A DNA stretch of 58,949 nucleotides. Source: Escherichia phage ECO95 1-6-1. The notes below the pieces were generated by a model that saw only the letters and a program-made list of their open reading frames with translations, had not been told where the DNA came from and made no database searches. The position numbers and the translations under genes are program-made. The stretch is taken from the sequence record OR845257. One strand, written 5' to 3'. Shown here in pieces: positions 2,606 through 2,847 of this stretch; position 1 is the first letter of the stretch; each line of letters begins with the position of its first letter.

Positions 2606-2657
2606 AATTTTCTACTCCGTTAAGTGTTTAAAAGGTCGTGTCGTGTTGACGGGATGA

Positions 2658-2687
2658 AGTATGGCCCAAATGCCGAATCGCTGTCAA
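2658..2687 (-). promoter_or_regulatory. candidate leftward promoter TTGACA-N18-CATACT
   Basis: perfect -35 on the minus strand upstream of gene 2201-2605; weaker -10. Confidence 0.35.
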
Positions 2688-2776
2688 ACACTTTTTTCAA
2701 AATTTTTTATTCGGGTACCGCAAGCCCTTTGTTTTCCGGACATAAAGCGCCTTTGGTACCCGGATAAATGGCCAAC

Positions 2777-2805
2777 TTGACAGATGTCAAGCCCGGATAT
2801 AATAT
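2777..2805 (+). promoter_or_regulatory. sigma70-type promoter TTGACA-N17-TAATAT for the primase operon, with palindromes TTGACAgaTGTCAA and CGGATATAATATCCG over the -35 and -10
   Basis: perfect -35, near-perfect -10, 42 nt upstream of the ATG at 2848. Confidence 0.65.
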
Positions 2806-2847
2806 CCGCAAATCTATAACACGCGCACATTACGCGAGGGCATCACT

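Follow-up and report, generated by a model that had tools for sequence, protein, structure and literature searches.

Conserved divergent promoters and two palindromes in the predicted early control region of a Chi-like phage

The interval at positions 2606-2847 of Escherichia phage ECO95 1-6-1 (sequence record OR845257; the whole stretch of 58,949 nucleotides is referred to here as the window) is best explained, with moderate confidence, as the early control region of a Chi-like phage, comprising a leftward promoter (P_L), a rightward promoter (P_R) and a probable feedback of the gene 3 product, gp3, on P_R. As read from the sequence, the interval contains two back-to-back sigma-70-type promoters, and these are footprinted by about 13 related lineages. 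Two palindromes lie on P_R, one over its -35 element and one centered on its -10 element. On this basis, a preliminary description of the DNA had suggested that a repressor controls the switch from one transcription direction to the other, leftward replication/late or rightward primase. The comparisons below point instead to a real but largely ordinary early promoter region of a well-known phage genus.

By sequence identity, the window is a Chivirus genome. Positions 2000-6200 share 100% identity with Salmonella phages S.Hadar 4-5-1 and vB_SenS_BPS1, 99% with Siskin and approximately 96% with iEPS5 and BP12C (all Chivirus, Casjensviridae), and the cos site, GCTCTGCGCACC at 6701-6712, agrees with the published Chi end. 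Implausible host names, for example "Staphylococcus phage SA 1298 Kay", "Listeria phage LM 4-11-1" and "Enterococcus phage Efm 3-10", appear on several near-identical GenBank records, which are probably contaminated or mislabelled assemblies. In its published description Chi is a lytic phage (PMC4342425). Lysogeny has been inferred in two papers from an integrase-like gene and turbid plaques, and the genome papers on Chi-like phages name only "two putative transcription regulator genes". According to the list of open reading frames and the Siskin annotation, the interval is the 242-bp gap between the leftward gene 4 and the rightward gene 3 and primase, with the following surroundings.

2185..2166, minus strand: terminator-like site from the sequence scan
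2201..2605, minus strand: gene 4 (134 aa), which opens the leftward unit and has an acidic C-terminal tail (...GEEDDV)
2836..2840, plus strand: Shine-Dalgarno sequence GAGGG, 7 nt before the ATG at 2848, with GAGG conserved in the alignment
2848..3129, plus strand: gene 3 (93 aa), first in the P_R operon, its stop overlapping the primase start (ATGA)
3126..5711, plus strand: primase-helicase (Pfam: Prim-Pol, PriCT_2, DUF5906), second gene of the P_R operon
5720-5740: terminator-like hairpin beyond the primase-helicase, from the sequence scan
5747-6088, minus strand: gp1, a 113-aa XRE/HTH_37 protein (Pfam)

Gene 4 matches phrog_7721, a family to which no function is assigned, over its full length; searches for Pfam and HTH hits to it gave none. 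Its Siskin counterpart is CPT_Siskin_004, which is followed by a terminator. Leftward from gene 4 lie a DUF2800 nuclease, a DUF2815 protein and DNA polymerase I, and past DNA polymerase I the same strand runs on into the morphogenesis genes, around the permuted window. The gene order is thus as previously described, with a leftward unit of replication and then morphogenesis genes and a rightward unit formed by the 93-aa gene and the primase. The phage encodes two HTH proteins, gp3 and gp1, and the gene for gp1 lies 3 kb from the interval, convergent with the primase.

Profile and model comparisons show gp3 to be a Cro/lambda-repressor-like HTH protein, by weak homology. An initial protein search with gp3 returned only two relatives, and a profile search found more. 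A profile of 13 homologues matches the Cro structures 3bd1 (E=0.002) and 5w8y. The AlphaFold model of gp3 is all-helical with medium confidence (pLDDT 74), and every one of its top fold matches is to a lambda-repressor-like HTH domain (SinR, HigA, 434 Cro and repressor, C proteins), with probabilities up to 0.98 but weak E-values (>= 0.2). This Cro/lambda-repressor-like HTH character makes gp3 a credible DNA binder and, by analogy, makes autoregulation by gp3 plausible but unproven. Residues 1-93 of the 93 residues of gp3 are matched by phrog_7401, and the N-terminal sequence MRFPxWA is conserved among the homologues. In Siskin (3403-3630 of that sequence), 118970_sal1 and MAG26fr, gene 3 is annotated as a 75-aa frame that starts from a downstream ATG. 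Given the conserved MRFPxWA, the spacing of the GAGGG and the full-length PHROG match, the 75-aa annotation is probably truncated.

The homologous intergenic region was compared within the Chi clade (Chi, BP12C, Season12, Utah, TS13, ECO111 5-P and 118970_sal1) and with further lineages: the FSL SP-030 clade (including sal2), Klebsiella phages Seifer, Soft, KPN N98, RAH2 and MAG26fr, Hafnia phage Enc34, Providencia phages, Salmonella phage SAP012, Yersinia phage Rostov 43, the uncultured lineage L014 and five distant lineages (L026, L045-L051). An IMG/VR pattern scan and a metagenome scan for new lineages yielded none beyond those in hand; a gp3-like open reading frame adjoined the match in 5 of the 50 metagenome stretches returned. 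Among eight Chi-clade phages the 242-bp interval has 18 variable sites, none of them in 2606-2670. The elements assigned to the two promoters are as follows.

2658..2663, minus strand: P_L -10, CATACT (consensus scan; CATAAT in Enc34)
2682..2687, minus strand: P_L -35, TTGACA (consensus scan; 18-bp spacer)
2688..2712, minus strand: A/T tract abutting the P_L -35 on its upstream side, reading GAATAAAAAATTTTGAAAAAAGTGT on the P_L strand, with conserved T/A runs
2777..2782, plus strand: P_R -35, TTGACA (consensus scan)
2800..2805, plus strand: P_R -10, TAATAT (17-bp spacer; TACTAT in most relatives)

Both P_R (TTGACA-17-TAATAT) and P_L (TTGACA-18-CATACT) score 10/12, and only nine promoter-like sites in the 58.9 kb reach a score of at least 10/12. 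For P_L, the -35 is kept as TTGAC(A/G) in all lineages with small positional shifts, and the -10 and the T/A tract are kept in all aligned lineages. For P_R, the -35 reads TTGACN in every lineage but Soft (TTTACT), and a -10 of the form TA(A/C/T)TAT is found 17-18 bp past the -35 in nearly all Chi-like lineages, Enc34 having TACACT. The bases just past this -10 (CYGC...) are conserved too. The positions of the hexamers are held while the spacer sequences have diverged in Chi, FSL SP-030, Seifer, L014, Enc34, Providencia, SAP012, Rostov 43, Soft and RAH2. The divergent promoter region of the preliminary description is therefore borne out by positional conservation of both promoters, with variable spacers, in at least 10 Chi-like lineages, and its leftward TTGACA, said to lie about 90 bp away, is located at 2687..2682, 90 bp from the rightward -35. 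With TATAAT (2798-2803) as an alternative -10, the spacer would shrink to 15 bp, and this hexamer is present only in the sub-lineage of the window. The A/T tract upstream of P_L is taken by us to resemble an UP element as given by the published consensus. A leftward promoter that uses TGTCAA (2785-2790) as its -35 was rejected, with no acceptable -10 found 16-18 bp downstream, and an informal comparison with consensus sequences gave no convincing match to FlhDC, FliA, CRP, LexA or IHF sites. A literature search returned neither transcription start site or transcriptome data for Chi-like phages nor papers that describe Chi promoters.

Conservation is also observed between the promoters and at the start of both predicted transcripts.

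2640..2652, minus strand: CA-rich block of the P_L leader, sense strand CCGTCAACACGAC, at about +3 to +15
2706..2768, no strand assigned: large imperfect inverted repeat, 25-nt arms with 80% complementarity
2714-2719 and 2755-2760: GGTACC boxes inside the large inverted repeat, with a central TCCGGA at 2735-2740
2818..2829, plus strand: CA-rich block of the P_R leader, AACACGCGCACA, at about +6 to +17

The GGTACC boxes, often CGGTACCG, are 40-45 bp apart and lie 19-22 bp (start to start) upstream of the P_R -35. Both are present in Chi, FSL, L014, SAP012, Rostov 43, RAH2 and MAG26fr, and the sequence between them has diverged. In most Chi-like lineages their distance from each of the two promoters is fixed. 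Polymorphism of the boxes is seen in Season12, which has GATACC/GGCACC, and in TS13, which has GGTGCA; in Seifer, a double change (GGTGCC/GGCACC) keeps the pairing of 2717 with 2757 in the repeat. As a structural element the large inverted repeat was rejected, with a DNA fold z-score of only -1.9 and uncompensated arms in Season12 and TS13. The P_L leader block is near-invariant in 11 sequences from approximately nine lineages, and ACACGC(G/A)CAC of the P_R leader block is near-invariant across lineages. The two blocks have AACACG in common and are invariant in the Chi clade and near-invariant over approximately 10 lineages. A stable hairpin does not explain the CA-rich blocks: the consensus hairpin of the P_R leader RNA reaches only -2.2 kcal/mol and shows no real covariation. 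Rfam gave nothing at gathering score in the whole window and only chance-level matches (E > 0.6) in 2400-3000. A search for the AACACGNNCAC motif at other promoters returned only the P_R site and one match in a coding region. From this alignment we infer that the constraint acting across the family covers the promoter cores, the paired GGTACC boxes approximately 41 bp apart and the CA-rich blocks that open both transcripts.

The two palindromes on P_R lie at the following positions.

2776..2791, no strand assigned: dyad 1, CTTGACA-GA-TGTCAAG, a perfect 7+2+7 palindrome over the P_R -35
2794..2808, no strand assigned: dyad 2, CGGATAT-A-ATATCCG, a perfect 7+1+7 palindrome

Dyad 1 is the perfect inverted repeat over the -35 that had been noted before. 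It is composed of TTGACA (2777-2782) and TGTCAA (2785-2790) with a flanking C and G, such that the -35 hexamer itself serves as the left arm and the right arm falls inside the hypervariable part of the spacer. Within the window genome, no further copy was found with up to 3 mismatches beyond chance. Dyad 1 occurs only in the Chi clade, with natural variants even there (T2785C in TS13 and 118970_sal1, G2791T in Chi and ECO111), and no lineage outside this clade, FSL SP-030 and Seifer included, shows any dyad at the -35. Where the window has TGTCAA, the FSL SP-030 clade and Seifer have TTTACG, though their gp3 is 84-86% identical. Since Seifer agrees with FSL at this site, TGTCAA is probably the derived state, having arisen in the Chi clade. 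Dyad 1 is most likely a recent, lineage-specific by-product and probably incidental. FSL SP-030 thus represents a natural variant that lacks dyad 1, and TS13 and Chi are natural variants in which either dyad is weakened.

Dyad 2 had previously been called near-perfect. Its presence and its centering on the -10 hold; the palindrome is in fact perfect, with arms CGGATAT (2794-2800) and ATATCCG (2802-2808) around A2801, the second base of the -10 hexamer. The perfect form is confined to the sub-lineage of the window: Chi and FSL, both with TACTAT, match at 6 of 7 arm positions, Seifer at 5 of 7, and the Providencia and SAP012 lineages at 4 of 7 in the same register. Dyad 2 is gone in L014, Enc34, Soft, RAH2 and Rostov 43, and is counted as absent in 7 of the approximately 10 Chi-like lineages that retain gp3. 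The perfect palindrome hangs on a derived A2802, given that most relatives, Chi and ECO111 among them (A2802C), have C at this position. As for dyad 1, the genome holds no further copy with up to 3 mismatches beyond chance. Because the right arm consists of the conserved -10 and discriminator, only the left arm of dyad 2 is informative. The Chi, FSL and Seifer groups all carry this arm unchanged, as CCGGATA, next to positions 2785-2792, which are hypervariable. An invariant CCGGATA beside a hypervariable spacer is suggestive, and is the best single argument from the alignment for a function of dyad 2, which makes dyad 2 a plausible candidate site of autoregulation within the group formed by Chi, FSL and Seifer.

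Dyads centered on the -10 are also seen in distant lineages, with GCGCA-CTA-TGCGC in L046 and L047, GCGCA-TAT-TGCGC in L045, AGCGCA-CTA-TGCGCT in L048, TGCGT-N7-ACGCA in L049 and TCCTA-N5-TAGGA in L026. In a shuffling test of the -10 dyad run for each lineage, p values of 0.004 (window), 0.02 (FSL), 0.011 (L048), 0.055 (L046), 0.066 (L049) and 0.11 (L026) were obtained, and the remaining lineages were non-significant. The Fisher combination over 13 lineages (p=0.089) is not significant, and the recurrence of -10-centered dyads across lineages is a trend, not a result.

The pairing of the two dyads was also compared with chance expectation. Compact palindromes, defined as perfect with arms of at least 7 and a spacer of at most 3, number 11 in the 58,949 bp, and approximately 14 are expected by our own arithmetic, which places the genome-wide count at chance level. 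Two of these 11 lie 3 bp apart and share one of the nine promoter-like sites. When the 242-bp interval is shuffled, at least one palindrome with arms of at least 7 appears in 7% of trials, and the fold of 2770-2815 has a z-score of -3.4, with 1 of 200 shuffles as stable. The co-location of both dyads on one promoter is unusual (about 1e-3, our own post hoc estimate) and unlikely to be pure chance, which speaks against calling dyad 1 incidental. The half-sites CTTGACA and CGGATAT are unrelated. Substitutions within the Chi clade fall inside the dyads at 2785, 2791 and 2802, or 3 of the 18 variable sites compared with 2.3 expected, and gp3 is essentially invariant there. As all three are arm-edge positions, this test is underpowered and argues neither for nor against function.

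In the explanation favored here, host sigma-70 RNA polymerase would fire P_L and P_R soon after injection, with P_L aided by its own A/T tract. Transcription from P_L would cover gene 4, read through the terminator at 2185..2166 and proceed along the replication genes to those for morphogenesis, and transcription from P_R would cover gene 3 together with the primase-helicase, whose translation is coupled to it. As Cro and other autoregulated HTH proteins do at their own promoters, gp3 would probably repress P_R, for which dyad 2 (2794-2808) is the best candidate site, as binding there would occlude the -10.

The switch of the preliminary description would instead make both palindromes operators for gp3, gp1 or both, with a repressor deciding between leftward and rightward early transcription. 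The perfect 7-bp-arm palindromes placed exactly on the -35 and -10, the presence of two HTH proteins in the phage and the position of gp3 at the head of the regulated operon, like cro in lambda, are consistent with such a switch, and the cluster of substitutions from TTTACG to TGTCAA could mean selection for a new site. However, with unrelated half-sites one protein cannot read both dyads, and neither dyad recurs in the genome even at 3 mismatches. The -35 palindrome in particular fares poorly as an operator, being absent from the FSL clade and Seifer despite their similar gp3, and dyad 2 is missing from most Chi-like lineages. P_L carries no overlapping dyad, so there is nothing by which the leftward unit would be switched, and gene 4, without an HTH domain, is not a repressor. 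With no divergent repressor gene, no related tandem operators and a phage published as lytic, a lambda-type bistable switch is not supported by the sequence, and a switch with both palindromes as operators is quite improbable.

At the opposite extreme, the palindromes could be functionless, with P_L and P_R constitutive and the TTGACA and TA(A/T)TAT-type hexamers and a drifting spacer occasionally completing a palindrome between them. The chance-level palindrome count in the genome, the reliance of a perfect dyad 2 on the derived A2802, the location of the right arm of dyad 1 in a hypervariable block, the background rate of substitution within the dyads and the combined cross-lineage p value all agree with this reading. 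Against it, two adjacent perfect palindromes on one strong promoter are improbable, three clades share an invariant left arm of dyad 2, in a sigma-70 spacer that is normally under little sequence constraint, and the conserved GC-rich -10-centered dyads of L046, L047 and L048 suggest a recurring design. A complete lack of function in both dyads is considered unlikely, with a real chance of being correct. It is very improbable that the interval is a replication origin, in which the primase-helicase or an initiator would act on the repeats and boxes, the A/T tract would unwind and the promoters would be activating. The interval does adjoin the primase gene and offers an A/T-rich tract at 2688-2712 as well as a large inverted repeat whose boxes keep a conserved spacing. 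In place of an iteron array, however, there are just two 6-bp boxes, which vary even among Chi-clade phages, and the position of the A/T tract is exactly that expected of an UP element for P_L. The only true iteron-like cluster of the genome is formed by eight copies of TTGTAACY at 6208-6488, and an origin within 2606-2847 was rejected in favor of this cluster near cos.

The early control region with probable gp3 feedback shares several features with lambda O_R (P_R/P_RM, Cro and CI) and with P22, 434 and Xfaso-1 Cro: divergent sigma-70 promoters, a small Cro-family HTH gene placed first in a rightward early operon that also holds a replication gene, and dyad-symmetric sequences over the -35 and -10 of the rightward promoter. 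In contrast to the lambda-type systems, no divergent CI-like repressor gene is found here, a tandem set of related 17-bp operators is replaced by one copy each of two unrelated dyads, the promoters are separate, with starts approximately 160 bp from each other and no overlap, and the -35 dyad is not conserved in close relatives. A small lambda-repressor-like HTH gene downstream of a dyad-bearing promoter is likewise found for the controller (C) proteins of restriction-modification systems and other XRE-type autoregulators (for example C.AhdI, C.Esp1396I, HigA and SinR), which are the top, although weak (E >= 0.2), fold matches to the gp3 model and with which gp3 shows no membership at the sequence level. 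The logic shared with these regulators would be simple negative autoregulation. Unlike C-boxes, where two related operators, O_L and O_R, form a pair with activating as well as repressing roles, the dyads here are unrelated, and no conserved C-box-like motif is present. The near-consensus -35 elements, the 17-18 bp spacers and the A/T-rich tract upstream resemble strong early promoters with UP elements in virulent coliphages, such as T5 and T7 A-type early promoters, and, as with these, host RNA polymerase would need no phage factors. The divergent layout, the GGTACC boxes between the promoters and the CA-rich blocks past the start sites differ from T5 and T7, and neither the boxes nor the blocks were matched to a known T5 or T7 element.

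More interesting than the palindromes are two other features, the GGTACC boxes and the CA-rich blocks of the leaders. One tentative proposal, which is rather unlikely as it stands, is that the Casjensviridae have a common, previously undescribed early-control architecture made up of two CGGTACCG-type boxes approximately four helical turns apart and the AACACG leader blocks. These would be read by gp3 or by another phage or host factor and would time the shut-off of the early genes of a virulent phage, and the palindromes of the window would be additions at the level of single lineages.

Several features elsewhere in the window were observed in the course of the analysis. All eight exact genome copies of TTGTAACY, counted on both strands, fall within 280 bp (6208-6488), in a stretch between the gp1 HTH gene and cos (6701-6712); approximately two copies are expected genome-wide, and eight were reached in 1 of 100 shuffles. 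To judge by its sequence, the stretch looks like an iteron or cosB-type protein-binding array, with gp1 as a candidate binder. On the other side of cos, a 27-nt repeat with the core ACGCACGCCGCGTATATCA is present in 6942-7148 four times, at intervals of 48-73 bp, along with two copies of the 14-nt repeat CGGGCCGCCATACG. Near-consensus sigma-70-like promoters are seen at 19026(+), 21237(+) and 9515(-), with a GC-rich hairpin only a few bases beyond each of them, and their sequences are TTGACA-17/18-TAATAT or TATATT and TTGACG-18-TATATT. These promoter-hairpin pairs could give very short transcripts or place hairpins at the 5' ends of leaders. Finally, acidic C-terminal tails that close in D-E-V or D-D-V (DDEDDDEV, GEEDDV, DDEDEV, AENDEV and others) are present in 9 of the 188 open reading frames of at least 60 aa. 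Such tails are found, among others, in the DUF2800 nuclease, gene 4, the primase and the gp1 HTH protein, and the frames recorded are as follows.

479-1816, minus strand: acidic-tail open reading frame
2201-2605, minus strand: acidic-tail open reading frame
3126-5711, plus strand: acidic-tail open reading frame
5747-6088, minus strand: acidic-tail open reading frame
47066-47359, minus strand: acidic-tail open reading frame
54227-54796, minus strand: acidic-tail open reading frame

These tails, comparable to those of SSB or T7 gp2.5, may be a common protein-interaction tail of the replication module.

Current understanding is not challenged by these findings, and their practical value is modest, lying in annotation and in promoter parts for the engineering of Chi-like therapeutic phages. 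For the Chi-like flagellotropic phages, whose transcriptional control is unstudied, the comparison supplies a footprinted map of the early promoters, together with support for the 93-aa start of gene 3 and the recognition of its product as Cro-like.
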